A DNA stretch of 21,614 nucleotides, taken from assembly GCA_038143065.1 (NCBI GenBank), contig JAYQLI010000040.1, forward strand, positions 1 through 21,614, read 5' to 3'. The stretch's first letter is position 1. The number at the start of each line of letters is the position of its first letter. Below the pieces are notes generated by a model, which was given only the letters and a program-made list of their open reading frames with translations, ran no database searches and was not told the DNA's origin. This document shows, piece by piece, positions 7,169 to 21,614 of this stretch. Both the position numbers and the translations under genes were made by a program. The stretch comes from Rhodospirillales bacterium (lineage in GTDB: Bacteria > Pseudomonadota > Alphaproteobacteria > Bin95).

Positions 7169-8911
7169 ATGACAACAACCCCTTCCCATGAGACTGGCTC
7201 CGCCTTGGCGGGGCGCTTGCAGAATACCTTTATCCCTCGCTTGAGCAATCTGCACGTCGTCGCCGTTCTGATCGCACTCCTCCTATTCGGATTGCTGGTC
7301 GTACCCGTTACACAAGTCATCTTTGTGGCTTTCCAGGACCCAGCCACAGGTGCAGCGACGCTACAGAACTTCGCCGATTTCTTTGCAACATCTCTATTCC
7401 GCGAGAGCTTCTGGAACTCCTTCTACGTGTCGGCCATGTCGGTGGTTGTCGCCACGGTTATCGCTCTACCGTTGGCCTACATAACAACTCGATTTAACTT
7501 TTCGGGTTCAATCCTGATCCAGTCTCTGGGTTTCATACCGCTGATCATGCCGCCGTTTGTTGGTGCTGTCGCCATGCAGCTCATATTTGGCCGCAACGGT
7601 ACCATCAACCTGCTTTTGCGAGACCACGTCGGGATTTCGATTCCCTTTATGGACGGGTTGAATGGCGTGATCCTCGTTCAGTCAATCCATTACTTCCCAT
7701 TCATCCTGATCAACCTTTCTGCTTCGCTCCGCAACATCGACCGGTCAATGGAGGAAGCAGCCCAGAATCTCGGCAGTTATGGATTGCGGCTCTTTCGGCG
7801 CATCGTTTTCCCGCTGGCAATGCCAGGATATATCGCCGGCGCTGCGTTGGTGTTCATCAAGGTTTTTGACGACCTGGGCACACCGCTGTTGTTGAACGTA
7901 AACAACATGCTCGCCCCGCAGGCATTCTTGCGAATTTCGAGTATAGGGATCAGTGATCCCATGGGATACGTGATTTCCTGCATCCTTGTTGTGTTCTCCA
8001 TTCTCTCGCTTTGGGCATCTTTCCTGGTTATGCGGGGCAAAGACTACGCGACCGTCCAGAAAGGCGGTGGCGGCATGGCCAAGCGCGATCTTAAACCTGC
8101 CGAGAAGACGTTGGCCTACGGCGTGGTCATCTTCATACTGCTCGTCGTTCTGAGCCCACACATTGGCTTGTTGCTGCTTTCCTTTGGCACGATCTGGAGC
8201 TTCGCTCCATTGCCAGATGGCTACACCGTCGAGAACTATTTGACCATGTGGGAAGGCTCCAAGACCTTCATCTTCAATACAGTCCTTTATGCCGGAATTG
8301 CGGCGACGCTGGACGTGATCATCGGTACCGCAATCGCCTATATCGTTATCCGCACCGGTATCGTTGGCCGCAAATGGCTGGACTACCTGGCGACGGCGGC
8401 TTTGGCTGTGCCCGGTGTTGTACTGGGAATCGGCTACCTCCGGACCTTCCATGGCGTCGATGTGCCGTTCACGGACGAGTCGCTGGCGAGCTGGTGGGTA
8501 ATCATCGCCCTGGCTCTTATGATCAGACGTCTGCCCTATGCCCTGCGAGCCTGCACTGCGGCCCTGCAGCAAGTCAGTCTTGCCTTGGAGGAGGCAGCGG
8601 AAAGCCTGGGCGCAACCAAACGGCGGACCATCCAGAAGATTGTGGTGCCCTTGATGACGGGCGGTATTCTGGCGGGTTTCGTTACCAGCTTTGCCACGGC
8701 AGCAGTCGAGCTTTCAGCAACGATTATGCTGGTCTCCAGCAACAATGACGCGCCGCTTGCCTATGGCATTTACCTCTTCATGCAGACTCCTTCGGGACGT
8801 GGCGCTGGGGCGGCGCTGGGTATCGTCGCCGTGATCGTGGTCGCCATTGGCACCGTCGCAAGCCAGATCATTATTGAGCGCGACAAGAAACTTAAAGAAT
8901 TCGGTGATTGA
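7169..8911 (+). CDS. ABC transporter permease, FbpB/AfuB/ThiP type (two fused TM domains)
   Basis: 580 aa, highly hydrophobic, two EAA loops (MEEAAQNLGS, LEEAAESLGA). Confidence 0.9.
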   Translation: MTTTPSHETGSALAGRLQNTFIPRLSNLHVVAVLIALLLFGLLVVPVTQVIFVAFQDPATGAATLQNFADFFATSLFRESFWNSFYVSAMSVVVATVIALPLAYITTRFNFSGSILIQSLGFIPLIMPPFVGAVAMQLIFGRNGTINLLLRDHVGISIPFMDGLNGVILVQSIHYFPFILINLSASLRNIDRSMEEAAQNLGSYGLRLFRRIVFPLAMPGYIAGAALVFIKVFDDLGTPLLLNVNNMLAPQAFLRISSIGISDPMGYVISCILVVFSILSLWASFLVMRGKDYATVQKGGGGMAKRDLKPAEKTLAYGVVIFILLVVLSPHIGLLLLSFGTIWSFAPLPDGYTVENYLTMWEGSKTFIFNTVLYAGIAATLDVIIGTAIAYIVIRTGIVGRKWLDYLATAALAVPGVVLGIGYLRTFHGVDVPFTDESLASWWVIIALALMIRRLPYALRACTAALQQVSLALEEAAESLGATKRRTIQKIVVPLMTGGILAGFVTSFATAAVELSATIMLVSSNNDAPLAYGIYLFMQTPSGRGAGAALGIVAVIVVAIGTVASQIIIERDKKLKEFGD

Positions 8912-8930
8912 CACTAGGGGAGCGAAAACC

Positions 8931-9980
8931 ATGGCGAAAGCAGGCATAAAGATCGAAAATGTCCATTTGTCCTTTGGCAAGACCAAGGTCTTGAAAGGAG
9001 TCGACCTTGAGATCCAACCTGGAGAATTTTTCGCCTTCTTGGGGCCGTCGGGTTCAGGAAAATCCACGCTACTTCGGGCCATCGCAGGTTTCGGACCGAC
9101 ACCGAAAGGGCGGATCCTGATTGGCGAGCGCGATGTCGTTGGATTGAACCCTTGGTCGCGCAATGTGGGAATGGTCTTCCAGAGCTATGCTTTGTGGCCG
9201 CACATGTCAGTGCGCGACAATGTGGCATTTGGTCTGCGGGAACGCCGAGTACCGACTGCCGATGCGAAACGGAGGGTTAGCGAAGTGCTCGATCTTGTTG
9301 GTCTAGCGCACTTGGCCGAGCGTATGCCAAACCAGCTGTCTGGCGGACAGCAACAGCGGATTGCCCTGGCGCGGACCATTATCGTCGAACCCGAGGTTCT
9401 ACTTCTCGACGAGCCACTATCCAACCTCGATGCGGGCTTACGCGTACAGATGCGCAGAGAGCTGCTACGTCTTCAACGTCAGTTGGGTCTGACAACGATT
9501 TTCGTCACCCACGACCAAGAAGAAGCTAACACGACATCGGACCGGATGGCGGTACTCGATGGGGGCGTAATCCAACAGGTTGGAAGCCCGCAGGAACTCT
9601 ATGACAGACCTGCAAACCTGTTTGTTGCGAATTTTCTTGGAACCGCCAACATCTTGAAAGGAAAAGTCGAGATCGACGGCGACGAAATGCGGTTCGTGAC
9701 TGAAACGGGGGACACACTTGGCCTGCCTAGCGTTATTGGTTCTGGAACCAACGTCGTTCTTAGGCCCCAAAACATCACCATTCAACAAACCGAGAGCAAA
9801 GACACATTCCAAGGTGAAATCTTGCATCGAGAGTTCCTAGGTAGTCAGGTTCGCTACTTGGTGCGCGCTGCAGGTGCTGAGATTGTCGTTGATCAGAGTC
9901 ACGTGCCCGAACATTCTTGGTTCGAGAATGGAGCAACAGTGCACCTTCGGGCAAACACCGCTGGCGCGGTGTTGCTTTGA
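8931..9980 (+). CDS. ABC transporter ATP-binding protein, FbpC/PotA type with TOBE domain
   Basis: ATG 8931 with AGGGGAG RBS (in frame with ORF 8847..9980); GPSGSGKS, VFQSYALWPH, LSGGQQQR, LLLDEPLSNLD, VTHDQEEA. Confidence 0.92.
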   Translation: MAKAGIKIENVHLSFGKTKVLKGVDLEIQPGEFFAFLGPSGSGKSTLLRAIAGFGPTPKGRILIGERDVVGLNPWSRNVGMVFQSYALWPHMSVRDNVAFGLRERRVPTADAKRRVSEVLDLVGLAHLAERMPNQLSGGQQQRIALARTIIVEPEVLLLDEPLSNLDAGLRVQMRRELLRLQRQLGLTTIFVTHDQEEANTTSDRMAVLDGGVIQQVGSPQELYDRPANLFVANFLGTANILKGKVEIDGDEMRFVTETGDTLGLPSVIGSGTNVVLRPQNITIQQTESKDTFQGEILHREFLGSQVRYLVRAAGAEIVVDQSHVPEHSWFENGATVHLRANTAGAVLL

Positions 9981-10051
9981 GTAGCACTCTGCGGGTGCCC
10001 GCAAAGACTGCGCCGCCTGAACAATAACCGTACCCAAAGCTGACCATTGCT

Positions 10052-10183
10052 TGTGACGAAGAAGCTCTTAGACCCAGATGGAGCGACCACAACGCCTAAT
10101 CCACGGCATACAGATTGAGTGTCACGTAATCGATAGACCGTAGCCCGTGGCTCTGCGTCCCGGATTTGTTTGTCTGTCAACAT
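10052..10183 (-). pseudogene. Truncated tyrosine integrase: N-terminal arm-DNA-binding domain only (P4-like, DUF4102/Arm-DNA-bind_3)
   Basis: MLTDKQIRDAEPRATVYRLRD...RGLGVVVAPSGSKSFFV matches the MLT-x3-I-x4-P...Y-x-L-x-D...GL-x-V-x-V-x-PSG-x-KSF pattern; similarity ends after ~44 codons; gene points away from the att core ~150 bp downstream. Confidence 0.8.
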
Positions 10184-10203
10184 ATTGCCGCGTTATTGCC
10201 ACT
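10183..10203 (+). repeat. Arm-type direct repeat pair TATTGCC(G/A)C, 11-bp period (family A)
   Basis: tattgccgcgt tattgccact abutting the integrase start codon; related copy ttattgccacgt...attgccc at 14715-14737. Confidence 0.6.
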
Positions 10204-10336
10204 TTCAGGATGTTACATGATGATATATCAAGAGATTCCATTGAGCAACAAGCTCGATCATATTACATTGTAAATAATGATAAATACACAGATTTTGTTA
10301 CTTTATGAGATGTGATGAAACATATTTACCACCTCA

Positions 10337-10381
10337 CTCATAACCTGAAGGTCGCAGGTTTCAAAATCCTGCCCACAACCA
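10337..10381 (+). repeat. att core 1: degenerate 3' half of tRNA-fMet(CAT)
   Basis: ctcataacctgaaggtcgcaggtttcaaaatcctgcccacaacca: anticodon loop CTCATAA through T-arm and ACCA, with small indels; no 5' half upstream. Confidence 0.88.
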
Positions 10382-10409
10382 AATATTTATATAAATTAAT
10401 TATTTGTCA

Positions 10410-10443
10410 GGCCACAATCCTTTGTGGTTACGGTCTTCTTTTT
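10410..10443 (+). terminator. Hairpin downstream of att core 1
   Basis: ggccacaa-tcct-ttgtggtt stem followed by acggtcttcttttt; same relative position as the hairpin after core 2. Confidence 0.45.
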
Positions 10444-10461
10444 GCGTTTGGCTTGCTGCTT

Positions 10462-10481
10462 TCTGTCCACAATCTGTCCAC
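10462..10481 (+). repeat. Arm-type direct repeat pair TCTGTCCAC x2, 11-bp period (family B, left end)
   Basis: tctgtccac aa tctgtccac. Confidence 0.65.
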
Positions 10482-10704
10482 TGCCCTTCAGGTTCAAACA
10501 AGGTTGAGTGGTAAAATTCCACACTTTCGCGAAACAAATCTGCTGTGCAAAACTGTTGTTTAGATTTTCAGATAGTTTTGGTCAGCTTTATCCGGTGAAC
10601 AATTGCGTCTGTCAGAATTTAAATCATGATTTATCGACCCATCTGTTATACGGATTGTGTTCGTTCAATTCTGTCACACGAATTACAAAGAAGAGTAGGG
10701 TTTG

Positions 10705-11499
10705 ATGAAAGCCATTATTTTTACAGATTTAGACGCAAGCCTACTGCATGAAGAAACTTTTTCGTGCGCTGAAATAATTGATGTTTTGAACACGCTGTTG
10801 GCTGATGGTGTTTTGATTATTCCCAACACCAGTAAAACCGAAGTTGAAACACGAAATGTTTTGGAGTCTCTGAATCTCAAAACACCTTTCATTGTCGAAA
10901 ACGGTGCCAAATTGTGTGATATGCAATGTATTTTCCAATCTATTGGTGAAACAGATAAAGAGTTTGGGATAGATGCGTCAGAGTTGGGCGCCAGACTCGA
11001 AAAGCTTGGTGATTTATCTTTCGTGAGTGATTTTCAGCCAATTACAAAATTGAAACCAGAAAAAGCCTCCCAAATTTTGGGATTAACTGGGGCAGAGTTA
11101 GAGGAAGCCCTCGAACGCAGATATAGCGCTTTATACCAATATATTGGTCCAAAATCTAAAATTCCCTTTTGGCAAAAAAATTTATTAAAGGTTGGTTTAA
11201 ACCTCTCACAAGGTGGGAGGGCTTTTGCTATCTCAGGTTGCCATGATAAGGCAACCCCGATGAAGTGGCTGTCAGAAAAACTTGTTTCAATGGGCCAGAG
11301 GCTTCCAAAAATCATTGCGATTGGTGATAGCAATAATGATAAACCAATGATGCTGGCGTCCGCTGTCGCTTGTGTTATACCTCACCTAAACGGCTCTCGT
11401 TTGACCTTGCCTGAGCACCCCTGTGTTGTTTTTGCGGATGAGCCAGCACCTTTTGGTTGGCAGCATGGTGCAAAAAAAGCACTAGAGATATTGTTGTGA
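10705..11499 (+). CDS. gpgP: Glucosyl-/mannosyl-3-phosphoglycerate phosphatase (HAD subfamily IIB, GpgP/MpgP/YedP type)
   Basis: IIFTDLDASLL, NTSKT, PFIVENGA, QGGR, DKA, AIGDSNNDKPM, PAPFGW; first gene of operon with gpgS. Confidence 0.82.
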   Translation: MKAIIFTDLDASLLHEETFSCAEIIDVLNTLLADGVLIIPNTSKTEVETRNVLESLNLKTPFIVENGAKLCDMQCIFQSIGETDKEFGIDASELGARLEKLGDLSFVSDFQPITKLKPEKASQILGLTGAELEEALERRYSALYQYIGPKSKIPFWQKNLLKVGLNLSQGGRAFAISGCHDKATPMKWLSEKLVSMGQRLPKIIAIGDSNNDKPMMLASAVACVIPHLNGSRLTLPEHPCVVFADEPAPFGWQHGAKKALEILL

Positions 11500-11516
11500 A
11501 TGCATAATATGCACTC

Positions 11517-12746
11517 ATGGATTTTCAACAGAACCGCTCCATAACTACGCTTCACAACTTAGGCTTGCGCTCTCTTGAGCAGAAAGAGGCCAAGTTACAA
11601 TTGTTCTCTGGCTATCGTCCGATGGAGCTCATCTTACCCTGCCTGTACAGTGAGATTGATGGGCCCGCGCTTGAGCCTATTGTGGAGCACTTGTCATCAG
11701 TCAAGTACATAAGCCACATTACGATCGGTTTGGACAAGGCGACAAAGGCTGAGTTTGAAGACGCTAAAAGGTTCTTCAATCGATTACAATCGCCACACTC
11801 TGTAATATGGAATGATGGCCCAAAACTCACCCGATTGAGACAATCTCTCGAAAACGTTGGTTTGGAAATGGGGGATCAGGGTAAAGGTAGAAATGTTTGG
11901 ACGTGTGTTGGCCATGTGATTTCCAGAGGTAAAGCTGAGGTTGTTGGCTTTCATGACTGTGATATCTTAACATATGATCGCGATTTGCTTGCAAACTTGT
12001 TTTTGCCTCTGGCGAATCCTGATTTTGAATTTGAATTTTGTAAGGGATATTACGCTCGTGTTGCCGACGGTAAATTAAACGGGCGAGTCGTTCGCCTGCT
12101 AATGGGACCACTCTTGGCCTCGTTCAGAGCTACACTTGGAGCAAATGAATATTTAGATTACATGGAGTCTTTCAGGTATCCGCTGTCTGGAGAATTTTCC
12201 GTTCGTAAAAGTCTGCTTCGTGACCTGCGGGTGCCTTTCGACTGGGGCTTGGAGGTGGGTTTGTTGTCTGAGGTCTTTCGGAATCAGGCAACCAACCGGA
12301 TATGCCAAGCTGAAATTTGTGACATTTATGATCACAAACATCAACCTTTGTCGACTGAGAATGCCGATAGTGGTTTGTCTAAAATGTCGACGGACATAAT
12401 CAAATCTCTCATTCGAAAATTGGCTATACAGGGATATTCGTTCAGCAATGAAACTATGCGTTCCATCAAAGCCTCGTATTATCGCTTTGCCCTGGACGCT
12501 ATCGATAAGTATAAAGCTGACGCAGCATACAATGCTCTGGAAATTGATCTGAATTCTGAGGAGAAGGCTGTTGAACTATTTGCCGAGAACGTGATGAGAG
12601 CTGGTGAGAGTTTTGCTTACGAACCAATGGCGATACCATTCATGCCTACTTGGTCCAGAGTTTCTTCGGCCTACCCAGACTTTCTCTACCAGCTACGTGT
12701 TGCAATAGAGGAAGATAATGGTCTCCAGAGCTATAGAGCAGCATAG
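11517..12746 (+). CDS. gpgS: Glucosyl-3-phosphoglycerate synthase (long cyanobacterial/proteobacterial GpgS-type glycosyltransferase)
   Basis: 409 aa; MDFQQ..ITTLHNL, LILPCLYSE, GKGRNVW, HDCDI, FCKGYYAR, GRVVRL, FRYPLSGEF, DWGLEVG, YDHKHQ, PTWSRV; flanked by cognate phosphatase. Confidence 0.82.
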   Translation: MDFQQNRSITTLHNLGLRSLEQKEAKLQLFSGYRPMELILPCLYSEIDGPALEPIVEHLSSVKYISHITIGLDKATKAEFEDAKRFFNRLQSPHSVIWNDGPKLTRLRQSLENVGLEMGDQGKGRNVWTCVGHVISRGKAEVVGFHDCDILTYDRDLLANLFLPLANPDFEFEFCKGYYARVADGKLNGRVVRLLMGPLLASFRATLGANEYLDYMESFRYPLSGEFSVRKSLLRDLRVPFDWGLEVGLLSEVFRNQATNRICQAEICDIYDHKHQPLSTENADSGLSKMSTDIIKSLIRKLAIQGYSFSNETMRSIKASYYRFALDAIDKYKADAAYNALEIDLNSEEKAVELFAENVMRAGESFAYEPMAIPFMPTWSRVSSAYPDFLYQLRVAIEEDNGLQSYRAA

Positions 12747-14496
12747 TGAGCTGAAGCAAAATTTATTTTGTATTTTGAACGACATATACCCAGAAATGTG
12801 CTCCTCTCTTCTGGATAATTTTGCCGAAGACCTTGCTAATTTAGCATCAGAAAATCAATCACCAGATGAGTTCAAAAATCGTTCGTTATGGTCTGCAAAT
12901 GACGTTCTATTAATTTCGTATCCCGACAACATAATCAGCCAAAACACACCACCGCTCCAGTCATTACAAAAATTCTTGGCCAAATATTTTTCTGACACGA
13001 TAAGCATCGTACATGTTTTGCCGTTTTTCCCTTCTACTGGCGATGATGGGTTCTCCGTTCAAAACTACTTTGAAGTTGATGAGAAATTGGGGGATTGGAT
13101 TGATGTTGGTGAGATCGTTAAACACACAACTCTAATGGCGGATGTAGTTTTAAATCATTGTTCTGTAGAAAGTTCATGGTTCATTGGTTACCAAAACGGC
13201 GACCCATTGTATGAAAACTTTTTTTGCACTGTCCCCGAAGACTTTGATACCTCAAACATTGTGCGTCCGAGAAGCTCTTCTTTAGAAGAAAAGTTTTTGG
13301 TTAATGGTGAGGAGAGGAATATCTGGTGCACGTTCAGTAGTGATCAAGCTGATCTAAATTTCAAAAACCCAGCAGTTCTTCGCAAACTTATAGATGTGAT
13401 ATTTTGGTATATTCAGAAGGGCGTGCGAGTTTTTAGATTAGATGCAGTTGCGTTTATCTGGAAAAATTCTGGCACTACAGGTTTAAATGCTCCTCAAGCT
13501 CATTTGATAGTCAGGTTGTTGAGGGTTTTGGTTGATTATGTTGATCTTGGAATAATTTTAATTACTGAAACAAATCTTCCGGTTGACGAAAACTTATCAT
13601 ATTTTGGAAACGGTAATGAAGCACATTGGATATATAACTTTACCCTACCGCCCCTGAGTATTTTTACTCTGATGTTCGGCGATGCCACCCAGATTCGCAA
13701 ATGGAGCATAGGAATGCCGCCTGCTCTTCCCAACACTGCTTATTTGAATTTTCTGAGCTCGCATGATGGTATTGGGTTGCGACCAGTTGAGGGTGTTTTA
13801 ACAGATCAGCAATTGGACCAGATGGTGAGCCAATTAGAGACAAATGGCTCGCTTTTCTCTTGGCGCAATATTTCGCAGAGCGAACAAAAAATTTATGAGG
13901 CAAACATCACTATTTTTAACTCCTTACGGCAGACACCATCTGATCCTACTGGAGAATTCAAAATACAGAGGTATCTGGCTGCAAATTGTATAATGTTGGG
14001 CTTCGAAGGTGTGCCTGCTTTTTATTTAAATGCATTTTTTGCGACATGTAACGACACTGATGCTGTAAATAAAAAACGCTCAAATCGCGCGATAAATCGC
14101 CACAAGTGGTCCAAAATAGAGCTTGAAAAGCGCCTAAAATCCTCAAAAAATATTGAGAGCTTAGTTTTCAATTCATTGAAGAGGCTCATATCCATCAGAA
14201 AATGCCAGCCCGCTTTTCATCCCAACGCGACACAGTTTACATTGCAATTAGATAGTTGTTTTTTTGGTATTTGGAGGCAGTCAATTGATCTTTCGCAGAA
14301 TATTTATGCAATAACAAATGTAACTCACTTAGAGCAAAGTTTGCGCTTAAGTAATTTAAATTTGGCATTTTCAGATAGATGGTTTGATTTGATCTCCGGC
14401 GATGAAATATCAAATTCTGCGAACGTGTTGTCCTTTAATCGTTATCAAACCTATTGGATCTCCAACGAGCGGCTTTGCATCTCTAAATCGACCTGA
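12718..14496 (+). CDS. GH13_18 sucrose-phosphorylase-family enzyme, probably glucosylglycerate phosphorylase (YcjM-like)
   Basis: 592 aa; HVLPFFP, DDGFSV, DVVLNH, WCTFSSDQADLNF, RLDAV (nucleophile), ITETN (acid/base), SHDGIG, YEANIT loop; GAGGAAG RBS; overlaps gpgS end. Confidence 0.82.
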   Translation: MVSRAIEQHSELKQNLFCILNDIYPEMCSSLLDNFAEDLANLASENQSPDEFKNRSLWSANDVLLISYPDNIISQNTPPLQSLQKFLAKYFSDTISIVHVLPFFPSTGDDGFSVQNYFEVDEKLGDWIDVGEIVKHTTLMADVVLNHCSVESSWFIGYQNGDPLYENFFCTVPEDFDTSNIVRPRSSSLEEKFLVNGEERNIWCTFSSDQADLNFKNPAVLRKLIDVIFWYIQKGVRVFRLDAVAFIWKNSGTTGLNAPQAHLIVRLLRVLVDYVDLGIILITETNLPVDENLSYFGNGNEAHWIYNFTLPPLSIFTLMFGDATQIRKWSIGMPPALPNTAYLNFLSSHDGIGLRPVEGVLTDQQLDQMVSQLETNGSLFSWRNISQSEQKIYEANITIFNSLRQTPSDPTGEFKIQRYLAANCIMLGFEGVPAFYLNAFFATCNDTDAVNKKRSNRAINRHKWSKIELEKRLKSSKNIESLVFNSLKRLISIRKCQPAFHPNATQFTLQLDSCFFGIWRQSIDLSQNIYAITNVTHLEQSLRLSNLNLAFSDRWFDLISGDEISNSANVLSFNRYQTYWISNERLCISKST

Positions 14497-14545
14497 TAAC
14501 TTTGACTTGCTGCATGCGGTTGGTCTAAGCAATTTAGCACCTTGC

Positions 14546-14565
14546 TCTATCCACCAGCTATCTAC
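14546..14565 (+). repeat. Arm-type direct repeat pair CTATC(C/T)AC x2, 11-bp period (family B, right end)
   Basis: tctatccac ca gctatctac; related to 10462-10481. Confidence 0.55.
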
Positions 14566-14602
14566 TACTCTGATATTTGTCAGAAAACCGGGAATTTTTG
14601 TT

Positions 14603-14650
14603 AGGCTCATAACCTGAAGGTCGCAGGTTCAAATCCTGCCCCCGGAACCA
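14603..14650 (+). repeat. att core 2: 3' half of tRNA-fMet(CAT)
   Basis: aggctcataacctgaaggtcgcaggttcaaatcctgcccccggaacca: anticodon arm, T-arm GGTTCAAATCC and ACCA; no acceptor-stem 5' strand upstream so not an intact tRNA. Confidence 0.9.
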
Positions 14651-14676
14651 AAAAGTATAGATTATTACAATATTTC

Positions 14677-14704
14677 AGCCACTTCATTTTTGAGGTGGCT
14701 TTTT
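14677..14704 (+). terminator. Rho-independent terminator after att core 2
   Basis: agccacttca-tttt-tgaggtggct stem (10 bp, one G-U) followed by tttt. Confidence 0.75.
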
Positions 14705-14714
14705 GTATTCAAAA

Positions 14715-14737
14715 TTATTGCCACGTTTAGATTGCCC
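14715..14737 (+). repeat. Arm-type repeat, family A (TATTGCCAC / ATTGCCC)
   Basis: ttattgccacgt ttag attgccc; same motif as 10183-10203 although spacing is not 11 bp. Confidence 0.5.
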
Positions 14738-15042
14738 ATGAAGCCTTTTACACGAAATGTTGACCAAGGACCCAGGTTAATGAAGCGATTTGTGCATCAG
14801 ATTTGGATGTTTGCACTGGTGGGCCTTGGTTGTGCTAGGCGTTATGTCGCGGACAATGGACCTTGACCCTTAAGGTTTAGTTTCCGATGGGGCCTCCAAA
14901 CTCTTTGGTTCCACCAAACTGATGTCTCTTGTGCTATTAAAGCTGATACAAACCGGATTTTAAAAATACGGACGCTTTATAGATATGCCGTTAAAGTCAA
15001 GGGCACTTCTAGGATCGTGGCATTAAAAATGAGGAAGAAATT

Positions 15043-15804
15043 GTGGATTTTGGAATAATTTTGCCAAATGATATAGCACCGTCCATTGTCATATTTTTGG
15101 TATTTATGAGTTTTGTAACATCTTTCATCACGGCCGCCTTTGGCATTGGTGGCGGAGCCATTATTCTGGCGGTTTTGGCGGTCAGCATACCGGCGGCGGC
15201 GCTGATTCCGGTCCATGGGGTGGTGCAACTAGGCTCGAACGCTGGCCGCGTCGGGCTGATGCTCAAGGACGTAGTATGGCGTCCGGCCTTGCCATTTATT
15301 GCGGGAAGTCTGGTCGGTGCAAGTATTGGCGGTGCTGTAGCGGTGCAGATACCGACAGCGATTGTGCAAATCGCCGTTGGTTTTTTTATTGTGTTTGTTG
15401 TGCTTGTCAAGCTGCCTCCAATCGCTATGCGCTATATTTTTGCAGGGGGATTGGTTTCAAGTTTTCTGACCATGTTCTTTGGTGCCACTGGCAATTTTAT
15501 TGCCGCCATGGTCAAAAGCATGCAGCTTGACCCGCTACCGCATGTGGCAACACATTCCGTGATGATGACGATTCAGCATCTGCTTAACGTGATTGTTTTC
15601 GGCATCGTTGGGTTTAACTTTGCCGCTTATCTACCAATTATCGTATGGATGCTCATTAGCGGGTTTGCCGGCACATTCATCGGCAAACAATTTCTGGTCA
15701 AATCCGGGCATGCTTATTTCAAACCCATATTAAACGGCGTGTTGTTGTTTGTGGCGGCTCACTTGATATGGACTGGTGCCAGTTTGATGCTCGCACCAGC
15801 ATAA
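15043..15804 (+). CDS. TSUP / TauE-SafE family membrane exporter
   Basis: 253 aa, ~8 TM; AAFGIGGG, LIPVHGVVQLGSN, FFGATG; GTG start with GAGGAAG RBS. Confidence 0.85.
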   Translation: MDFGIILPNDIAPSIVIFLVFMSFVTSFITAAFGIGGGAIILAVLAVSIPAAALIPVHGVVQLGSNAGRVGLMLKDVVWRPALPFIAGSLVGASIGGAVAVQIPTAIVQIAVGFFIVFVVLVKLPPIAMRYIFAGGLVSSFLTMFFGATGNFIAAMVKSMQLDPLPHVATHSVMMTIQHLLNVIVFGIVGFNFAAYLPIIVWMLISGFAGTFIGKQFLVKSGHAYFKPILNGVLLFVAAHLIWTGASLMLAPA

Positions 15805-16155
15805 CGGAGTATTAAAATTTAATTATTTGTAAACCGGCGGTGTGCGATCTAGAAATGTCGCCCATAGACCATCGCATAGTTCTTCGGCTGGATAGGGGGT
15901 TTTTGATTTCGTGAAGACACAAGCTTTGACATTCTTTCGAGTACCTTTAAAAGCTGGCCATTATGTGCCCTAGCTTCTAACCCGTCATAACAGTGTTTCT
16001 GTTGTTTATGAATGGTCAGATAATGCTTGATGTTCCATCGGGTTTGTTCTGCAAATGCTAAGTTAATGGCTCACAGGCAACGAAAACGTTTTAATGGTAT
16101 AGATTTCCAATATGCCAAGAAAGCCTGACAGCTCTGTTTTTCACATTCGTGACAA

Positions 16156-16995
16156 CTAGAGTTCGAAGCCATGCTTTCGCACATAGTTGCTAAAGGATAT
16201 ACGGTCTGTATTCGAAGTTTGGCGAGCCTTGTCAAGTGACCAGCCATAGTCTTCTAAAATACCGTATCTGTCTGATTGGCGCTGATTTTTATATGAGTTT
16301 TTTTTCTGGCGTCGCCGATCATATTCGGCGACCTCATCCGCCAAAGACGATGCGTCATATCTATTTTTATGCACCACGACCCTTGCTGGTAATCGGACGC
16401 TGATAGGGGGGTCATCTTCAGCGTAGCCCAGACATAAACCGGCAAAGGGAAAGACGCTATCAGGTAGGGCGCAGAATTCTGAGAGGCTATCAGTGATTTC
16501 ACGCACTGCACTGACCGGACAGCAGCCCAGCCCTTCTGCTTCAGCGGCAATTATAAAATTCTGCAAAACAATCGCAGTGTCCGCCACAGCATTTACAAGC
16601 GCATCCACCGGATCATGTGCAAAGCTGGCATTATGAAACTCACAAATATCCCGAATACGCCGACTGTCCCCACAAAACAAAAGAAATACTGGCGCTGAGG
16701 AAATCCATGGCATTGATGGAATGTTACGCTGGATAAAGTCCCGTGCGACAGGCTCCTCTAGGTGGATGATCGCAGTTTGCTGCAGGTCAGATTTGCTAGG
16801 TGCTGATAGGGCGCAAGCATACAAAAGCTGCAGGGTTTCTTCTGTAACCGGAGTATTTTTGAAACGACGGTGAGAGCGATGTTCAAGCTGTGTTGCATGA
16901 GTTCCAATTGGAAAACGGTCTTTGCCAATGTTGCTTGGCTCGGCAAATCGTTCACGAATGAGATCAGATAATTTTCGTGTTTCTTTTTCTACCAC
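16156..16995 (-). CDS. Nitroreductase family, NfsA/FRP-like NADPH-dependent flavin oxidoreductase
   Basis: HRSHRRF, SAPSKSDLQ, LLFCGD, DTAIVLQN, AAEAEGLGCCPVSAVR, VFPFAGLCLGY, RLP..VVVH. Confidence 0.88.
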   Translation of the reverse strand: MVEKETRKLSDLIRERFAEPSNIGKDRFPIGTHATQLEHRSHRRFKNTPVTEETLQLLYACALSAPSKSDLQQTAIIHLEEPVARDFIQRNIPSMPWISSAPVFLLFCGDSRRIRDICEFHNASFAHDPVDALVNAVADTAIVLQNFIIAAEAEGLGCCPVSAVREITDSLSEFCALPDSVFPFAGLCLGYAEDDPPISVRLPARVVVHKNRYDASSLADEVAEYDRRRQKKNSYKNQRQSDRYGILEDYGWSLDKARQTSNTDRISFSNYVRKHGFEL

Positions 16996-17129
16996 CTCGA
17001 CTATCCTTCTTTCAGTTGGATTCTATACCGATAGTTTAATTAACAGGACTGCTAACAATGCTAAAAGAATTGTCATAAGTCCAATTTGCAGCGCGGTTAT
17101 TTGATGATACGGCCAAACAAAAAGGAAGA

Positions 17130-17810
17130 GTGAGGTTGACAATGACGGTCGAACACGCCTTACAGTACCGCAAATCCTGCCGCTCTTTTCTGGACCGACC
17201 AGTGGATAGTCAATTGTTGCGGAGCATTATTCGACAGGCGTCTCGAGCGCCGTCTAATGGCAATTTGCAGCCGTGGCAGCTATTTGTATTGACGGGGGAC
17301 GCACTGGCTAGCCTGAAGGCCGCTACCCGTGACGCTATTGCCCAAAATCAGCCTCTGTCGACGCCTGAATATGCGGTTTATCCAAAACCACTCAAAACTG
17401 AATTTGATGCGCGGCGCTTTGCAATCGGCGAGGATATTTACCGCGTTCTTGGGATCGCACGAGAAGACAAGGCCGCCCGGCGCGCACAATTTGCCAAAAA
17501 TGCAATGATGTTTAATGCTCCGGTTGGTGTGTTTGCTTATATTGACCGGTCGCTAAGTTATGGCCAGTGGATGGATCTTGGCATGTTCTTACAAAGCCTG
17601 ATGCTGTTATGTGAAGACCATGGTCTTGCCAGCTGCGCCCAGGGCTATTGGACGTTCTTTCACGACAACGTGCGCGCTGTGACTAGCGCGCCAGACGATT
17701 TGATGCTTGCATGTGGCCTTGCTATTGGCTTTGAGGATACTGAGGCCCCGATCAATCGAGTGCATTCGGCGCGGGTGTCGATAGATGAATTTGCCACCTT
17801 CATTGACTAA
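17130..17810 (+). CDS. Nitroreductase family protein (second subfamily)
   Basis: RKSCRSFL, RAPSNGNLQPW, FNAPV, DLGMFLQSLML, GLASCAQ, GLAIGF; AGGAAG RBS. Confidence 0.88.
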   Translation: MRLTMTVEHALQYRKSCRSFLDRPVDSQLLRSIIRQASRAPSNGNLQPWQLFVLTGDALASLKAATRDAIAQNQPLSTPEYAVYPKPLKTEFDARRFAIGEDIYRVLGIAREDKAARRAQFAKNAMMFNAPVGVFAYIDRSLSYGQWMDLGMFLQSLMLLCEDHGLASCAQGYWTFFHDNVRAVTSAPDDLMLACGLAIGFEDTEAPINRVHSARVSIDEFATFID

Positions 17811-17910
17811 ACGATTGAGCGGGTGGCCGTTAAATAGCTAATTCAATCACTACATAATTAAGGTGCAAGTAACGGCGGTTGCCTGGTGACCAAAAGACAA
17901 GAGAATTAAG

Positions 17911-19236
17911 ATGAAAAGTCAGTTTGTTTTTCAACGCAATAGTCGAACCAGCCTTCCTGTTGTCAAGGCTGGGGATGGGTGTTTTCTTTTTGACGAAACT
18001 GGTAACGCCTATCTTGATGGCTCAGGTGGCGCGGCAGTGTCTTGTCTTGGCCATTCTGATCTTCATGTGAAAAATGCCATTATTAAACAGGCTGAAAACA
18101 TCGCTTATGCCCACACATCTTTTTTCACCAGTTCGCCAGCAGAAGAGCTAGCGGCACGTTTGGCCGCATATGCGCCGGGAGATATCAATAGGGCTTATTT
18201 GGTATCAAGCGGGTCTGAGGCGATGGAAGCTGCAATTAAATTGGCCCGCCAATATTTTATTGAGACCGGTCAGCCAAACCGCCAGCATATCATTGCTCGA
18301 AAACAAAGTTATCATGGCAATACTCTTGGTGCTTTGGCAGCAGGGGGAAATCAGTGGCGCCGCCGTCAGTTTGAACCTTTGCTGGTTCAAACCAGTCTTA
18401 TTTCTCCTTGTTATGCATGGCGTTATAAGCGCGACTATGAAAGCGAAGAAGATTATGGTCTTCGGGTCGCCAATGAGTTGGAAGAAGAAATCTTACGAGT
18501 TGGCCCAGAACAGGTAATGGCATTTTTGGCTGAACCTGTGGTTGGCGCAACGGCAGGCGCGCTTTGCCCTGTCCCGGGATATTTAGCCCGAATCAGAGAG
18601 ATTTGCGATCAATATGGTGTCTTACTTATTTTTGACGAAGTCATGTGTGGCATGGGACGGACAGGGGCGCTGTTTGCCGGTGACGTTGATGGCGTCACCC
18701 CTGATATTGTGGCGATTGCCAAAGGCCTAGGGGCAGGCTATCAGCCGATTGGGGCGATGTTGTGCCAAGATTATATTCATGATGCTATTGAACATGGATC
18801 AGGGTTTTTTCAGCATGGTCATACCTATCTTGGTCATCCGATTGCCACAGCGGCGGCGAATGCTGTTTTGGATCGTTTGGTGGTTGATGGCCTTGTTGAT
18901 GAAGTGGCACAAAAAGGCGAATATTTAAAATTGTGTTTAGAGGCAAAACTGGCACAACACCCCCATATCGGCAATATTAGAGGCCGAGGGTTGTTTATTG
19001 GCATTGAATTTGTCGCATCACAGGATGGCAAAACGCCCTTTGACCCTGCTTTGAATGTGGCAGGCAATTTGAAAAAGAATGCCTTTCAATCGGGGCTGGC
19101 ATGCTATCCAGCTCAGGGGACAATTGATGGCAAATCAGGAGACCATGTCTTGCTAGCACCGCCATTTATTATCACCAATGATGAAATGGATATGCTGGTG
19201 GATCGGCTGGCTTTGGCGATAGATATGACCATGTGA
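17911..19236 (+). CDS. Class III PLP-dependent aminotransferase
   Basis: YLDGSGG, SGSEA, SYHGNT, EPVVG, DEVMCGMGRTG, AKGLGAGY (PLP lysine), HGHTY, RGRGL, LAPPFI. Confidence 0.92.
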   Translation: MKSQFVFQRNSRTSLPVVKAGDGCFLFDETGNAYLDGSGGAAVSCLGHSDLHVKNAIIKQAENIAYAHTSFFTSSPAEELAARLAAYAPGDINRAYLVSSGSEAMEAAIKLARQYFIETGQPNRQHIIARKQSYHGNTLGALAAGGNQWRRRQFEPLLVQTSLISPCYAWRYKRDYESEEDYGLRVANELEEEILRVGPEQVMAFLAEPVVGATAGALCPVPGYLARIREICDQYGVLLIFDEVMCGMGRTGALFAGDVDGVTPDIVAIAKGLGAGYQPIGAMLCQDYIHDAIEHGSGFFQHGHTYLGHPIATAAANAVLDRLVVDGLVDEVAQKGEYLKLCLEAKLAQHPHIGNIRGRGLFIGIEFVASQDGKTPFDPALNVAGNLKKNAFQSGLACYPAQGTIDGKSGDHVLLAPPFIITNDEMDMLVDRLALAIDMTM

Positions 19237-19278
19237 TTGGTCATCGAAGGTTCAACCATTGCTCCCGCAACCAATTTT

Positions 19279-19312
19279 ACAAATGCTCGTGATTTCACGA
19301 GCATTTGTTTTG
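19279..19312 (+). terminator. Terminator-like hairpin after the aminotransferase
   Basis: Perfect inverted repeat acaaatgctcgtga (19279-19292) / tcacgagcatttgt (19295-19308) followed by a T run. Confidence 0.7.
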
Positions 19313-19508
19313 CCGCGCAAATAACTTTATTCGGCAATATATCAATATCACCTTATGCAAACGCTTCGACATGGCGGGCGATTCAGTCGCAACATTAAAT
19401 CTCTTTGAGTCGCCTCGACCAATCTTGTCAGAAAATAGCTTTTGACCAATAGGAATATTGCGGCTTTTGCAATGCCAGACGTTTATTGCAACTTGAAAAT
19501 TTTGTGTA

Positions 19509-21129
19509 ATGCTTAATACTGGTTTTATGAACGGTGGTCTTCATTCAATTGTCCAAGGTCTTTGCGAACTGCCAAAGCAGCTACGCTGGAGCTATCTTCC
19601 ACCCCTTATGGTTTATCTCGCAGCTGGTGTGTCTGGACTAACGGCAATTGTTGGCACTTTTTTTATCAAAGATTATCTGAATTTATCGGCTGCATTTCTG
19701 GCTAGTCTTGGCTTTTGGGCGGGTTTGCCATGGGCGTTAAAAATGCCGCTTGGGCATCTAGTCGATTTGATTTGGAAATATAAGGCTTACCTTGTCGGCC
19801 TTGGTGCGGTGGTAATTGCCGCCAGCCTCTTGATCATGTACGGGCTGATTGGCCATACCGAATTCATGGCCAACATCATGCCTGTTGAAACATGGTTTGT
19901 AACCAGCGTTATTTTAGGGCCTGTCGGTTATGTCATTCAGGATGTTGTGGCCGATGCAATGACGGTTGAGGCGGTTCCCGAACAGGATGAAAATGGCGAT
20001 GATATCGACCCAGACCAGCTAAAAATCATGCATACCACGATGCAAACCCTTGGCCGATTTGCCATTATTGGTGGCACAGTTTTGGTTTCACTTACCAATG
20101 TGATTTTGTTTAGTGGTGTTGATAGTCTTGATACCACTGCCCGCATCGATCTTTATGCGAATATCTATCTTTATGCGTTGATCATTCCGGCCATCTCGAT
20201 TGCTGGGGTCATTCTCGCACGCCTCCAACAGTCTTATCGCAACGCCCGTATTGGACAATTATATCACACCCCAACAAGCCCGCATCAACGGCCTGAAATC
20301 AACTGGTCAATTCTGCTTGGCAGTCTGGTCTTTGTGGTGTTTTCCCTGAGCGTTGGCACATCGGATATCGGCTATGCACAGGAAATTGTCTTTGCTGGAT
20401 CGGTTGGTATTATCTTGTTTTTAATGAAACGGCTGGATGCGCTTTCTTTCGGCTGAAAAACGTCTAATGATTGTTGGAACCGCGATTATTATTTTCACCT
20501 TCGGGCAATGCAAGCCGGGGCCGGGGTTAACATGGTTCGAAATTGACCAGCTTTTATTCAATGAGCAATTCCTGTCCATTCTTTCGCTTATTGCATCAAT
20601 TCTGACCCTTGTTGGCATTATCTTGTTGCGACCATTTATGGCGAATAATTCGATTGCGCGCATTGTTGTTATTTTATCCATTGCTGGTGCTGTGCTGTTT
20701 CTGCCGAGTATTGGTATGTATTATGGCCTGCATGAATGGACCGCTGCCTATAGTGGCGGGATTGTTGATGCGAAATTTATTGCGATTATCAATACCGCGG
20801 TCGAATCCCCACTTGGCCAGGTGTCGATGATACCTCTTCTGGCCTGGATTGCTCGCAATGCGCCGGCCCATATGAAGGCAACATTTTTTGCTGTTTTTGC
20901 GTCATTTACCAATCTGGCACTGTCGGCAAGCGCACTTGGCACCAAATATCTTAATGAGGCCTTTATCGTCACACGCGAGGTGAAGGACAAGTTAAGTGAT
21001 GCCATTGTCACCACGGCCGATTATTCCGAATTAGGGATGCTGCTCATCACCGTTTTGCTGATCACCCTTGTGATGCCGATTGGCATGGTCATTATCGTCC
21101 AGAATAGCCGTTTTAAAACAGTTGATTAG
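19509..21129 (+). CDS. BT1 / folate-biopterin-transporter-like MFS membrane protein, split by a +1 frameshift at ~20436
   Basis: ORFs 19509..20456 and 20437..21129; LPWALKMPLGHLVD, QDVVADAMTVE, ARNAPAHMKATFFAVFASFTNL resemble BT1-family motifs; deleting one G from ctgg atg gives ...MKRLMRFLSAEK..., ~540 aa. Confidence 0.7.
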
Positions 21130-21225
21130 TCGTCTCGGATTTGAGCTGGCTTTGTGTTTAGGGTTTTCTTGCAGGGCTTTCTTATGGGCGCTGTTTGGTC
21201 GCGCCTGCTGGGTGAATATTTTGCC

Positions 21226-21545
21226 CGTATCATCTTGATCAAACCGCATCACGCTTAACATCGGTCTGAACACTTCGTGCCGAGCGATGCTATTATCTGG
21301 CTCGCAGTCAATGATGGTTGGTTCAAAAAATGCCCCATCGCGGTTTAGGGGTCGTCCACCAGCAATGATTTTTCCGCCTTCGGCAACCGCATCCGTCACC
21401 ATTGATACGGCGCGGTCACGCTGCGGTATTGATACCATCGACCCCATATTCGCGCCAAACTTAGACAGGTTGATGCCATCATCAAAGTGCCGTCTTGATT
21501 GTTTTTTTTTGATCAATAATATAATCGCCTGGCCTGCATGGCCTG
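21226..21545 (-). pseudogene. Aldehyde dehydrogenase remnant
   Basis: MGSMVS..QRDR...AVAEGGKIIAGG...GAFFEPTII...IARHEVFRPMLSVMRFD corresponds to the ALDH MGPLI...EGA...GG...GxFxEPT...EEIFGPVL region; similarity stops abruptly near 21226, C-terminus missing, and the AGQ motif lacks the following catalytic Cys. Confidence 0.75.
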
Positions 21546-21614
21546 TGATATGTCTTGACATGGCCTTCGATCATGAGATGGGCATGTTTTGTCAAGGTTA
21601 AGTCTATGTTTTAA

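Follow-up and report, generated by a model that had tools for sequence, protein, structure and literature searches.

In lambda-type attP sites, arm-type sites are bound by the N-terminal domain of the integrase, and P4-like integrases carry the arm-binding domain PF13356. The locus described here shares with such sites short direct repeats in each arm, placed at set distances from the core, and, in one of its two repeat families (family A), an N-terminal arm-binding domain (PF13356 in contig C44), the repeats being predicted binding sites. It differs in the strict 11-bp period of its repeat pairs and in the swapping of the motif between closely related integrases.

Passages of PMC5704250 define CIMEs and describe tandem accretion; as in the ICESt1/ICESt3-family islands of Streptococcus treated there, mostly decayed elements stand in tandem at the 3' end of a target gene, and mobility would need the integrase of a related element. 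Like a CIME, the block between the two cores studied here (island B) is flanked by direct repeats of the target-gene 3' end with no integrase inside, and its arms are homologous to those of integrase-encoding autonomous phages. Unlike CIMEs, it has arms from a temperate phage family instead of an ICE, a metabolic operon as cargo, and no accretion partner carrying a working cognate integrase. For marine genomes, parts of 10.1101/2020.12.28.424599 describe tandem elements split by partial tRNAs, with degenerate remnants; the tycheposons of that work resemble the present locus in their marine hosts, nutrient or stress cargo, fragmented integrases, extra partial tRNAs and older elements pushed inward by successive tRNA integrations, whereas the borders of island B are those of lysozyme-encoding phages. 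With integrons, to which the first-pass annotation had likened the locus, only the notion of recombinase-less units in an array is shared: IntI, attI, attC hairpin sites and a cassette promoter are absent, island B is a three-gene operon and not one of the mostly single promoterless ORF cassettes, and the boundaries are direct tRNA 3' repeats with direct, lambda-style arm repeats instead of the imperfect inverted repeats of attC. The label is not supported. Probably, integrative elements have accumulated in tandem at a tRNA-fMet hotspot, and island B is a phage-derived, integrase-less and CIME-like member of the array.

Layout of the locus and cargo of island B

The window (the whole stretch of 21,614 nucleotides that was analysed, on contig C40) holds the features below, in which the short repeats are putative arm-type integrase binding sites.

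10052-10183, minus strand: family A, P4-like tyrosine integrase, 5' remnant of 43-44 codons, starting at 10183
10183-10202, plus strand: putative arm A, P side, TATTGCCGCGT-TATTGCCAC, with TATTGCC at 10183 and 10194, period 11
10337-10381, plus strand: core1, a degenerate partial tRNA-fMet (positions 33-77)
10410-10429, plus strand: hairpin after core1, weak (fold -10.2 kcal/mol, z -1.8)
10462-10481, plus strand: putative arm B, P' side (L arm), TCTGTCCAC twice, at 10462 and 10473, period 11
10702-11499, plus strand: gpgP-like HAD-IIB phosphatase (TIGR01486, 137 bits, below cut-off; PF08282)
11517-12746, plus strand: gpgS-like, glucosyl-3-phosphoglycerate synthase-like (NF040724 GpgS_Meth, full length, 347 bits, below the equivalog cut-off of 700)
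12718-14496, plus strand: GH13 sucrose-/glucosylglycerol-phosphorylase-like (PF00128; TIGR03852, 176 bits, below cut-off)
14547-14565, plus strand: putative arm B, P side (R arm), CTATCCAC/CTATCTAC at 14547 and 14558, period 11
14603-14650, plus strand: core2, tRNA-fMet positions 30-77 with one mismatch (C>G)
14651-14813, plus strand: module with terminator hairpin (14677-14700, strong, z -5.0), ATTGCC at 14717 and 14731, and GGACC repeats
14851-14961, plus strand: segment X, 78% identical to L012 7034-7145

This order of parts, including the hairpins after both cores, is the one given by the first-pass annotation, and its two arm-repeat families around the same tRNA-fMet core were borne out. 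Three of the four repeat pairs (10183/10194, 10462/10473 and 14547/14558) do have the 11-bp period it reported; the fourth, the ATTGCC pair of the module, has period 14 and on its own carries little weight (the window contains 6 such 6-mer events). Across the 4.63-Mb assembly, exact 7-mers repeated at period 11 occur at 0.063 per kb, and exact 9-mers 34 times in total.

The 22-mer CTCATAACCTGAAGGTCGCAGG matches exactly at 10337 and 14606, both on the plus strand (two occurrences in the window; expected count 0 in 100 shuffles), and the two cores are direct repeats in one orientation that bracket block B. ARAGORN found no intact tRNA in the window, so both tRNA-fMet copies are partial, and none on the contig, which places the tRNA-proximal end of the array out of view. 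Both annotated cores are real, with sizes that need a small correction: core2 covers positions 30-77 with one mismatch, and core1 matches cleanly over positions 33-56 only (10337-10360), its 3' part being degenerate (GGTTTCAAAATCCTGCCCACAACCA). The identity block of core2 (AGG...CCA) is the same as in phage attP sites. Core1 has two roles, attR for island A and attL for island B, and core2 is attR of island B. The flank TTACCACCTCA with core1 is common to the window and contig C44. The stem of the hairpin after core1 is kept, with differing letters, in L026, L027 and the phage attP sites, and is an element-supplied, terminator-like stem. GC content across the region steps from 55% to 41% to 47%; the first step coincides with the integrase break, where there is no core, and the second with core2. 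Same-orientation partial tRNA copies separate blocks that differ in composition or arm type.

Island B (4269 bp, 4.27 kb; 41% GC) contains three metabolic ORFs, preceded by 320 bp of upstream DNA, and two small ORFs without matches. By its profile matches, the product of 10702-11499 belongs to the mannosyl-/glucosyl-3-phosphoglycerate phosphatase family; PDB GpgS matches of the gpgS-like protein are weak, and the top PDB match of the 12718-14496 product is glucosylglycerol phosphorylase 7xdq (1.8e-45). The cargo is thus a candidate glucosylglycerate-type sugar-osmolyte operon. Searches of the ORF list, Pfam and NCBIfam found no recombinase, integrase, excisionase or transfer gene in island B, in agreement with the earlier description of a block with att-type borders and no recombinase, and PF00589 had no match on contig C40.

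Two arm families on one core

The integrase remnant annotated left of core1 is present, as merely the first 43-44 codons, and is the sole recombinase trace in the window. It is truncated where the 55% GC block begins, beside an ABC ATPase ORF that ends at 9980, and is 76.7% identical over 43 aa to C44:24261-24133 (tblastn; 75% across residues 1-44). Its match to PF13356 (Arm-DNA-bind_3) is weak and under the cut-off; that of the C44 integrase has an E of 1.2e-20. The arm A pair abuts the integrase start codon in the window, in C44 and in the unrelated genome G415, and in all three the family A motif ATTGCCGCGT lies at the start of a P4-like integrase, in the same layout of integrase start, arm pair, about 135 bp and core. 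In G415, CAT-aata-ATTGCCGCGTAATTGCCGCGTT stands beside a full-length integrase (433 aa, 47% identical). The arm-A pattern had six matches in other genomes of the class, of which five (all except G415) are chance matches within coding DNA.

The module is 76% and 68-74% identical to two copies on C39, and occurs also in C36 (with four tandem ATTGCCGCGTTC), in L012 and in the viral contig L197. The 10-nt motif of family A is found one to four times in the post-core module of C39 (two copies), C36, the window and L197; the L012 copy has single ATTGCCAC/ATTGTCC motifs instead of the 10-mer. On the basis of this shared motif, the module is read as the putative P' arm of family A or of a close analogue. 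In L197 it follows a core whose P arm bears a different motif, and in G005, of the same genus, a module-like start lies directly after tRNA-fMet, so that some of the module may be native DNA downstream of the tRNA. A complete A element (tRNA-module ... int-arm-core) was not found. In L012, the homologue of segment X has the module on one side and the same three-gene operon on the other.

The family B motif in the window is CTGTCCAC, with period 11. Over both strands of the 4.63-Mb assembly, its degenerate pair pattern has just two matches, the two borders of island B; since the pattern was derived from these very sites, independent support comes from comparison. Among 80 fetched IMG/VR loci bearing the arm-B pair, three had a contiguous P arm, core, hairpin and P' arm; a phage lysozyme is encoded upstream of these, and about 1.3 kb downstream lies a 399-aa open frame for a tyrosine integrase. 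The L arm of the window aligns with the P' arm of phage contigs L079, L084 and L090 and lies 80 nt past CCA, within the phage range of 78-94 nt, and the R arm aligns with the phage P arm, including GCAGAAAACCG...TTAGG. In the R arm, two of four repeats are lost and the remaining two mutated: L020 retains all four, and the window is short of 29 bp.

Relatives of this tyrosine integrase (383 aa) are encoded at 46 IMG/VR loci, 29 of which have the same tRNA-fMet core upstream of the integrase and on its strand. All 29 had a period-11 8-mer pair 78-94 nt past CCA, and the pair motif recurred in the P arm in 28 (in at least two copies in 27). The arm motifs fall into at least seven classes that track integrase clades. 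With one mismatch allowed, YTGTCCAC-type arms were present on both sides in six of the nine core-bearing loci whose integrase was at least 69% identical, and in none of the 20 with integrases 48-59% identical, which bear CATAGCAC, AGTGGCAA, GTGGCGAT or GGTGACTT. A stretch around residues 20-35 of the integrase is variable and changes along with the arm motif; the N-terminus of the family B integrase had no Pfam arm-domain match. These sequence comparisons show that the borders of island B are homologous to attP arms of a marine temperate phage family, and that each arm motif is linked to its own integrase family. The two integrase specificities on one core proposed earlier thus found their counterparts, each family having its own integrase elsewhere (A in C44 and, at full length, in G415; B in the IMG/VR phage contigs).

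Relatives, rival explanations and mobility

Most of the closer metagenome copies of the operon stand at tRNA-fMet cores. In L027, the place of core1 is taken by a tRNA-fMet that is unbroken up to the contig start (positions 4-77); the L arm and the operon come directly after it, at 93% identity, and L026 has a 60-nt partial tRNA there. In L020, operon, R arm and core stand in this order, and the R arm has four repeats of the CTGTCCAC type. L012 carries the operon at 95% identity in a different att context, and in L022 and L038 the cores preceding the operon have P arms of other clades upstream. No integrase was found among 24 flanking ORFs scanned in 7 of 19 metagenome loci. In a single-cell genome the operon is 95% identical, and the only other matches between that genome and this assembly stand at about 70% identity; the L arm was found in none of 400 other genomes of the class. 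On C39, in the same assembly, tRNA-fMet is the last gene of the rRNA operon and heads a comparable array: the next 20 kb or so contain two modules, a fragment of a module and, at the end, a mini-core, after which comes a differing, native-looking terminator; this contig had no tyrosine-recombinase match. The bin is mixed, its 16S copies being 84-88% identical, and many genes in the assembly are split.

The first-pass annotation saw an integron-like, additive array, in which arm-bearing cassettes are routinely captured and released in trans and B sits inside an attP-like junction of A. The two arms and absent recombinase of island B, the several integrase-less segments among core and module repeats on C39, and the changing att contexts of the operon in L012, L022 and L038 are in keeping with this, but we consider it unlikely: a dedicated array integrase is absent along with attI and attC, the arms belong to complete phages that encode their own integrase, those of B are eroding in the window, and successive integration and decay, as set out for CIMEs in passages of PMC5704250, explains the whole pattern. 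A receiving attP-like junction is likewise unneeded, as P(A)-core-P'(B)...P(B)-core-P'(A) is the ordinary outcome of tandem accretion.

That the nested order is unreal, with a contig joining different organisms or loci at tRNA-fMet repeats, is very unlikely. The bin is mixed with split genes, it is conceivable that pieces were wrongly joined at a tRNA repeat or that core1 contains homopolymer errors, GC changes from 41% to 47% at core2, the tRNA part is common to very many metagenome organisms (depth in the thousands at 14598-14771), and no independent sequence confirms the joins P(A)-core1-L and R-core2-module. Against this, core1 and core2 share just 24 exact bases and the degenerate 3' part of core1 is unique, the 55-to-41% GC step sits off any core, the core-L-operon (L026, L027) and operon-R-core (L020) junctions recur in other assemblies, and core-module junctions are found in C39 and L012. 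We give hardly any credence to a third reading, in which the repeats are chance repeats, or operator or promoter elements of flanking genes, with no role in recombination; the arm-A pair, which lies over the start of integrase translation, could be an operator only, and the weak period-14 pair and the five chance matches of the arm-A pattern point the same way, but that pair is conserved beside integrases just 47% identical, the arm-B pattern is confined to the borders of B, and in the phage attP sites the pair keeps a fixed offset (29/29) and its motif flanks the core on both sides (28/29) and varies with the integrase clade.

As a tandem array of integrative elements, the locus would begin on the left with the attR end of a decayed island A (integrase remnant, two ATTGCCGCGT, about 135 bp and core1). 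Island B would follow with its P' arm (hairpin and two CTGTCCAC) and its P arm (two eroded repeats of an original four), everything once between them having been swapped for the three-gene glucosylglycerate-type operon, and then core2 with the P'-type ATTGCC module of family A or a close analogue. Such an order would arise by successive site-specific integrations into a regenerated tRNA, the newest element adjoining the tRNA. Because its borders are marine temperate phage att arms, island B is probably a stranded or hitch-hiking remnant within an ordinary tandem array and no integron-like system.

From the geometry, as had been proposed, recombination between core1 and core2 would release a circle of 4269 bp that carries armB-core-armB, and armA-core-armA would stay behind. 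Excision in trans is plausible, and B would be excisable only with the integrase of a CTGTCCAC-clade phage (and presumably an excisionase) supplied in trans, or would move with a neighbour. The earlier claim that B is mobilised in trans was not upheld: no B-type integrase is encoded in the assembly (tblastn, E<=1e-5), the right arm is eroded, no empty site for island B was found, and in the short unitigs of four metagenome runs the joints were ambiguous and explainable by variant arms, none of them being a clean circle or empty-site joint. In this genome, island B is more likely to be a remnant that is fixed and decaying.

Significance for metabolic cargo between phage-type att arms

The known picture of tandem accretion is unchanged, and a clear marine example is added to it, which illustrates a travel route for a glucosylglycerate-type compatible-solute operon and connects an island that lacks an integrase with a concrete helper, namely phages of one family whose attP can be recognised. 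Of the by-products, the most interesting is that the arm repeats are specific to each clade on a core that all share. The phage set is a natural covariation series, in which core and geometry are constant and the arm motif and integrase residues around 20-35 vary, and it is usable to learn how arm-binding domains read their sites. More speculatively, and with more doubt than confidence, a radiating phage family may have kept one 48-nt core and one attP layout at the rrn-distal tRNA-fMet of marine Alphaproteobacteria (the hosts we presume from the rrn-tRNA-fMet layout), swapping its arm 'address' at least seven times, with cargo-only derivatives bearing matched arms moved between lineages by the matching phage clade. 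If true, such address-coded arms would constitute a natural trans-mobilisation system for metabolic cassettes.

Cores and repeat pairs around island B

Two exact copies of the core 22-mer reported in the first-pass annotation are present in the window, starting at 10337 and 14606 (both + strand; 0 expected in shuffles), and no intact tRNA was found in the window by ARAGORN. Core1 and core2, the two partial tRNA copies that border island B, were compared to the tRNA-Met(CAT) encoded on C39, another contig of the assembly; its C1/A72 ends and its position as the last gene of an rRNA operon lead us to take it as a tRNA-fMet. The starts of the two cores are 4269 bp apart, and the GC content is about 55% up to ~10000, about 41% on to 14600 and about 47% beyond. 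The four repeat pairs were recovered at their reported positions, the first three with period 11 and the last with period 14.

Cores, repeat pairs and cargo genes of island B and its borders
10183 and 10194: TATTGCC pair, period 11
10337-10381, + strand: core1, clean match only to tRNA positions 33-56, 3' part with small indels and one substitution
10462 and 10473: TCTGTCCAC pair, period 11
Between the cores: HAD-IIB phosphatase, mannosyl/glucosyl-3-phosphoglycerate phosphatase family
Between the cores: glucosyl-3-phosphoglycerate-synthase-like protein, NF040724 at full length, 347 bits, under the equivalog cut-off
Between the cores: GH13 enzyme, nearest to glucosylglycerol and sucrose phosphorylases
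14547 and 14558: CTATCCAC/CTATCTAC pair, period 11
14603-14650, + strand: core2, tRNA positions 30-77, single C>G change
14717 and 14731: ATTGCC pair, period 14

As background, exact 7-mers at period 11 occur at 0.063 per kb in the assembly, and 9-mers at this period 34 times in its 4.63 Mb. A degenerate pattern of the arm-B pair (the pair bordering island B) matched the whole assembly only at the two island borders; as it was written from those two sites, it is the comparisons with other loci that constitute a real test. Each core is followed by a hairpin, weak in the case of core1 (z -1.8) and strong and terminator-like in that of core2 (z -5.0).

The assembly comprises 52 contigs, the window being the whole of contig C40, and contains rRNA operons of three kinds (the 16S of C39, 28712-30198, has 88% identity with both copies on C35, a contig of 2.86 Mb, and 84% with the C49 copy), which indicates a mixed bin. 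Many genes are split (in the window a HAD gene at 136-411/411-809 and BT1 at 19509-20456/20437-21129; in C39 an M24 peptidase and a dimethylglycine-dehydrogenase-like gene), and for both reasons the homopolymer differences of core1 and single frameshifts need cautious reading.

Putative arm repeats of phage and P4-like integrases

The IMG/VR viral contigs were scanned with the arm-B pair, which gave at least 120 stretches, 80 of which were fetched; among the matches listed, most were due to chance. In three of the fetched contigs (L079, L084, L090), a four-repeat P arm, a 48-nt core, a hairpin and a two-repeat P' arm are contiguous. Upstream of them is a phage lysozyme, and an open frame of 399 aa whose domains are Phage_integrase, Phage_int_M and SAM-like is located about 1.3 kb downstream. 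Two small ORFs between the P' arm and the integrase gene of L079/L084 are excisionase candidates. Both the left end of island B (core1 to ~10500) and its right end (~14545-14605) align to the arms of these contigs.

A search with the phage integrase gave 46 IMG/VR loci, 29 of them with the core upstream on the same strand. The integrases of the 17 core-less loci were 49-100% identical to the query in ten and only 27-44% in seven; nine of the former ten had less than 900 bp available upstream of the match, and the tenth, L211, lacked a core despite 2255 bp of upstream sequence. All 29 core-bearing loci contained a period-11 pair of 8-mers 78-94 nt past the CCA (in the window, the pair lies 80 nt past the CCA, also at period 11), and the same motif, with one mismatch allowed, was also found in the P arm of 28 of them, in at least two copies in 27. 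The motif varies with the integrase: TGTCCAC-type, GTGTTGCC and TGTCGCCA at 69-100% identity to the query, CATAGCAC at 57-59%, and AGTGGCAA, GTGGCGAT and GGTGACTT at 48-51%. Among the core-bearing loci, YTGTCCAC-type arms on both sides (one mismatch allowed) were present in six of the nine whose integrase is at least 69% identical and in none of the 20 with 48-59% identity. This is strong comparative evidence that the repeat pairs are arm-type sites of the phage integrases, and it shows that the borders of island B are the putative attL and attR left by a phage of the CTGTCCAC clade, with the operon in place of the phage genome. A B-type integrase was not found in this assembly, and the left arm as a DNA query matched none of 400 other genomes of the class.

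Within the set of integrases with 69-100% identity (from loci L205-L243), N-terminal residues ~20-35 differ with the arm motif (TT.V.RP.... in the TGTCCAC class, TIVKKRADRS.EH.GEQ with an insertion in the GTGTTGCC class, TITKKRNKDEV in the TGTCGCCA class), and are a candidate specificity loop.

The TATTGCC pair belongs to another family, that of a P4-like integrase (family A). On the - strand, an ORF that starts at 10183 has integrase homology in its first 43-44 codons only (77% identity to C44:24261-24133), the remainder being replaced by a block of 55% GC whose ABC ATPase gene ends at 9980. The ABC-transporter part of this block (7873-9857) has a 74% identical paralogue at C52:2469-4450, on another GC-rich contig. 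The layout of contig C44 matches that of the window: the integrase N-terminus with a clear PF13356 arm-binding domain (the gene is broken into several frames), TTATTGCCGCtTTATTGCtAC at the start codon, ~135 bp, and TTACCACCTCA with a perfect 45-nt core. Immediately to the right of this attR core lie fragments of a large serine recombinase (C44:24416-25917; L009 10417-11917) with Recombinase and Zn_ribbon_recom domains, reading towards the core; to its left are the split gene of the P4-like integrase and part of a DNA polymerase A gene.

When the C44 N-terminus was used as a query against the 400 other class genomes, one close relative was found, a 433-aa open frame with 47% identity in G415, upstream of which CAT-aata-ATTGCCGCGTAATTGCCGCGTT, ~135 bp, TCA with a 45-nt core, and a terminator follow one another. 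The layout shared by C44, the window and G415 thus links the ATTGCCGCGT pair to this integrase family across deep divergence. The pattern ATTGCCRCGT-N1-2-ATTGCC was present in six of the 400 genomes, core-linked only in G415 and a chance match in coding DNA in the other five; a match to G001 in the search for the arm-A order was coding DNA, too. In viral contigs, the period-11 pattern of arm A gave a single match, by chance, and the period-12 pattern ten loci, with a core only in L197, where the P arm has another motif. G415 contains two more partial tRNA-fMet cores with flanks of their own (C120:16518 and C144:2511; L053, L054), and this bearer of a full-length family-A integrase may carry arrays as well.

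The 163 bp after core2 (the module, 14651-14813) consist of the hairpin, ATTGCC repeats and GGACC repeats. Copies with one to four 12-bp repeats were found in C39 (after the intact tRNA-fMet and again 10 kb on, behind a mini-core of 7-10 nt), in C36 (15440-15660, behind a mini-core, with four tandem ATTGCCGCGTTC repeats), in the single-cell genome contig L012 and at the end of the viral contig L197, and a 28-nt fragment at C39:9725. We infer that the module is the P' arm of family A, since its motif equals the integrase-proximal motif. The end of L197 (IMGVR_UViG_3300033273_000287), in which three GGTGTGAC P-arm repeats, a tRNA-fMet core, a hairpin and ATTGCCGCGTTC repeats follow one another, counts against this assignment because its P-arm motif differs from the module motif; it looks like the attR junction of a GGTGACTT-clade prophage abutting a module. 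No complete family-A element was found. The module might instead be native sequence downstream of the tRNA. This was rejected because the last parts of the C39 array, 20 kb away from the tRNA, are a mini-core and a different terminator like those after the C44 and G415 attR sites; G005, a genome of the same genus with a module-like start right after the orthologous tRNA, counts against an element rather than host origin and keeps the native reading partly open. The GGACC-repeat half occurs alone at C36:7010-7070, with a tyrosine recombinase ORF (7413-8297) ~340 bp downstream of it, and may be an arm of yet another integrase.

The cargo operon in other att contexts

The three genes between the cores have the same orientation and are read as a putative glucosylglycerate-type compatible-solute operon. 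Neither the ORF list nor profile searches revealed a recombinase, excisionase or transfer gene inside island B, and PF00589 had no match on the entire contig C40. Close relatives of the GpgS-like protein are encoded on 19 metagenome contigs; among 24 flanking ORFs scanned from seven of these loci, no integrase was found. In L027, tRNA-fMet positions 4-77 begin at the contig's first base and are followed by the same left region and operon (93% identity); in L026, the tRNA at this position is a partial copy of 60 nt. L020 has the operon, a right region with four CTGTCCAC-type repeats and a core at the contig end; compared to it, 29 bp are missing from the window, where the two repeats that are left carry mutations. 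In L038 and L022, cores preceding the operon have P arms of other clades upstream (GGCGATAC-type and GGCGATAA, respectively), so that such arrays are common. A reading of L038 as a circle junction was rejected, as its core is not preceded by the end of the GH13 gene. Remoter copies of the operon (75-80%) in L023, L024, L029 and L032 lie in ordinary contexts with no core. Of the papers listed on glucosylglycerate and genomic islands, none is about such an island, judging from titles and the openings of abstracts.

The single-cell genome contig L012 (CACHXC010000015.1) carries the same three-gene operon with 95.4% DNA identity (window 10660-14514, L012 7144-10998), and all its other matches to the assembly are only ~70% identical. 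In L012 (6902-10998), a 17-21-nt tRNA-fMet end, the module and a homologue of window segment 14851-14961 are followed directly by the operon, an order circularly permuted with respect to that of the window. Window and L012 thus have the operon behind two different P'-type arms, and the segment that they share ends inside both arms of island B. This speaks for an exchange of the operon between putative att contexts within such arrays, rather than for island B moving as a fixed unit. The layout of L012 and a short repeat, ATACGGA, at 10645 and 14967 had prompted the idea of a permuted circle (operon, right end, core2, module and segment 14851-14961 inserted 280 bp downstream of core1); it was dropped because the left end aligns to a phage P' arm and because tRNA, left region and operon are continuous in L026 and L027.

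Proposed formation of the array and possible mobility of island B

C39 (4781-25227; L007, L008) carries an array of ~20 kb behind an rrn-distal tRNA-fMet. From the tRNA, it consists of a module and 9.7 kb (EF-hand, ECF sigma, MTTB, DMGDH-like, M24); the mini-core CAACCAAAAA with a module and 5.4 kb (OsmC, ABC transporter); and a truncated nitroreductase joined to a 28-nt ATTGCC fragment, 4.9 kb, and GGCGGTTGTGTG with a mini-core of 12 nt before a different terminator. C39 gave no match to a tyrosine recombinase. The nitroreductase gene to the right of island B (17107-17712) has a 91% identical truncated copy inside this array (9747-10356).

Integration into a tRNA gene leaves tRNA-P'...P-core, and the next arrival takes the restored tRNA, displacing the older element from it, as described in 10.1101/2020.12.28.424599 and, for CIMEs and accretion, in PMC5704250. 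The window order P(A)-core1-P'(B)...P(B)-core2-P'(A-type) is the exact outcome of three successive integrations, in which the module side would be the oldest, followed by B and then by the A island, whose integrase would have been truncated later. The arrangement would look no different if B had integrated into an internal A-A junction, and the two courses are indistinguishable.

Island B cannot move by itself. Core1 and core2 have 24 exact bases in common, spanning the anticodon stem-loop, and a CTGTCCAC-clade integrase from an incoming phage could in principle recombine them; the product would be a 4269-bp circle. The circle and empty-site joints envisaged in the first-pass annotation were looked for in Logan contigs from four metagenome runs, each of a different study, over 9900-15100 and in short unitigs only, and no clean one appeared: two joints, 14652>10456 and 14639>10798, were each present in a single contig and are compatible with an intact core and a variant left arm after it, and joint 10481>14596 has 30 letters in between that resemble a phage-type P arm. 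These four runs, the eroded P arm, the degenerate core1 and the lack of a cognate integrase in the bin argue against current activity, and we consider it less likely than not that the window's copy of B is still excisable in trans. No synteny of the right flank was found in the other relatives searched (40 for 14640-16100 and 36 for 15000-21614; the only matches were an aminotransferase paralogue of ~65% and the 91% nitroreductase gene copy in C39), so that no B-less allele can be defined in relatives. Being non-syntenic in 36 other family genomes, the right flank may be island DNA itself.

Among known systems, the lambda/P4 paradigm of arm-type sites is one of the closest. The others are CIMEs and their tandem accretion, a concept set out in PMC5704250, and the tandem or degenerate elements parted by partial tRNAs in marine genomes, described in 10.1101/2020.12.28.424599. 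The likeness to integrons put forward in the first-pass annotation fails on every defining feature; its observation of nested repeats around two cores was confirmed, and its interpretation is supported in part only. A useful by-product is the occurrence of clade-specific arm repeats on one shared tRNA-fMet core.
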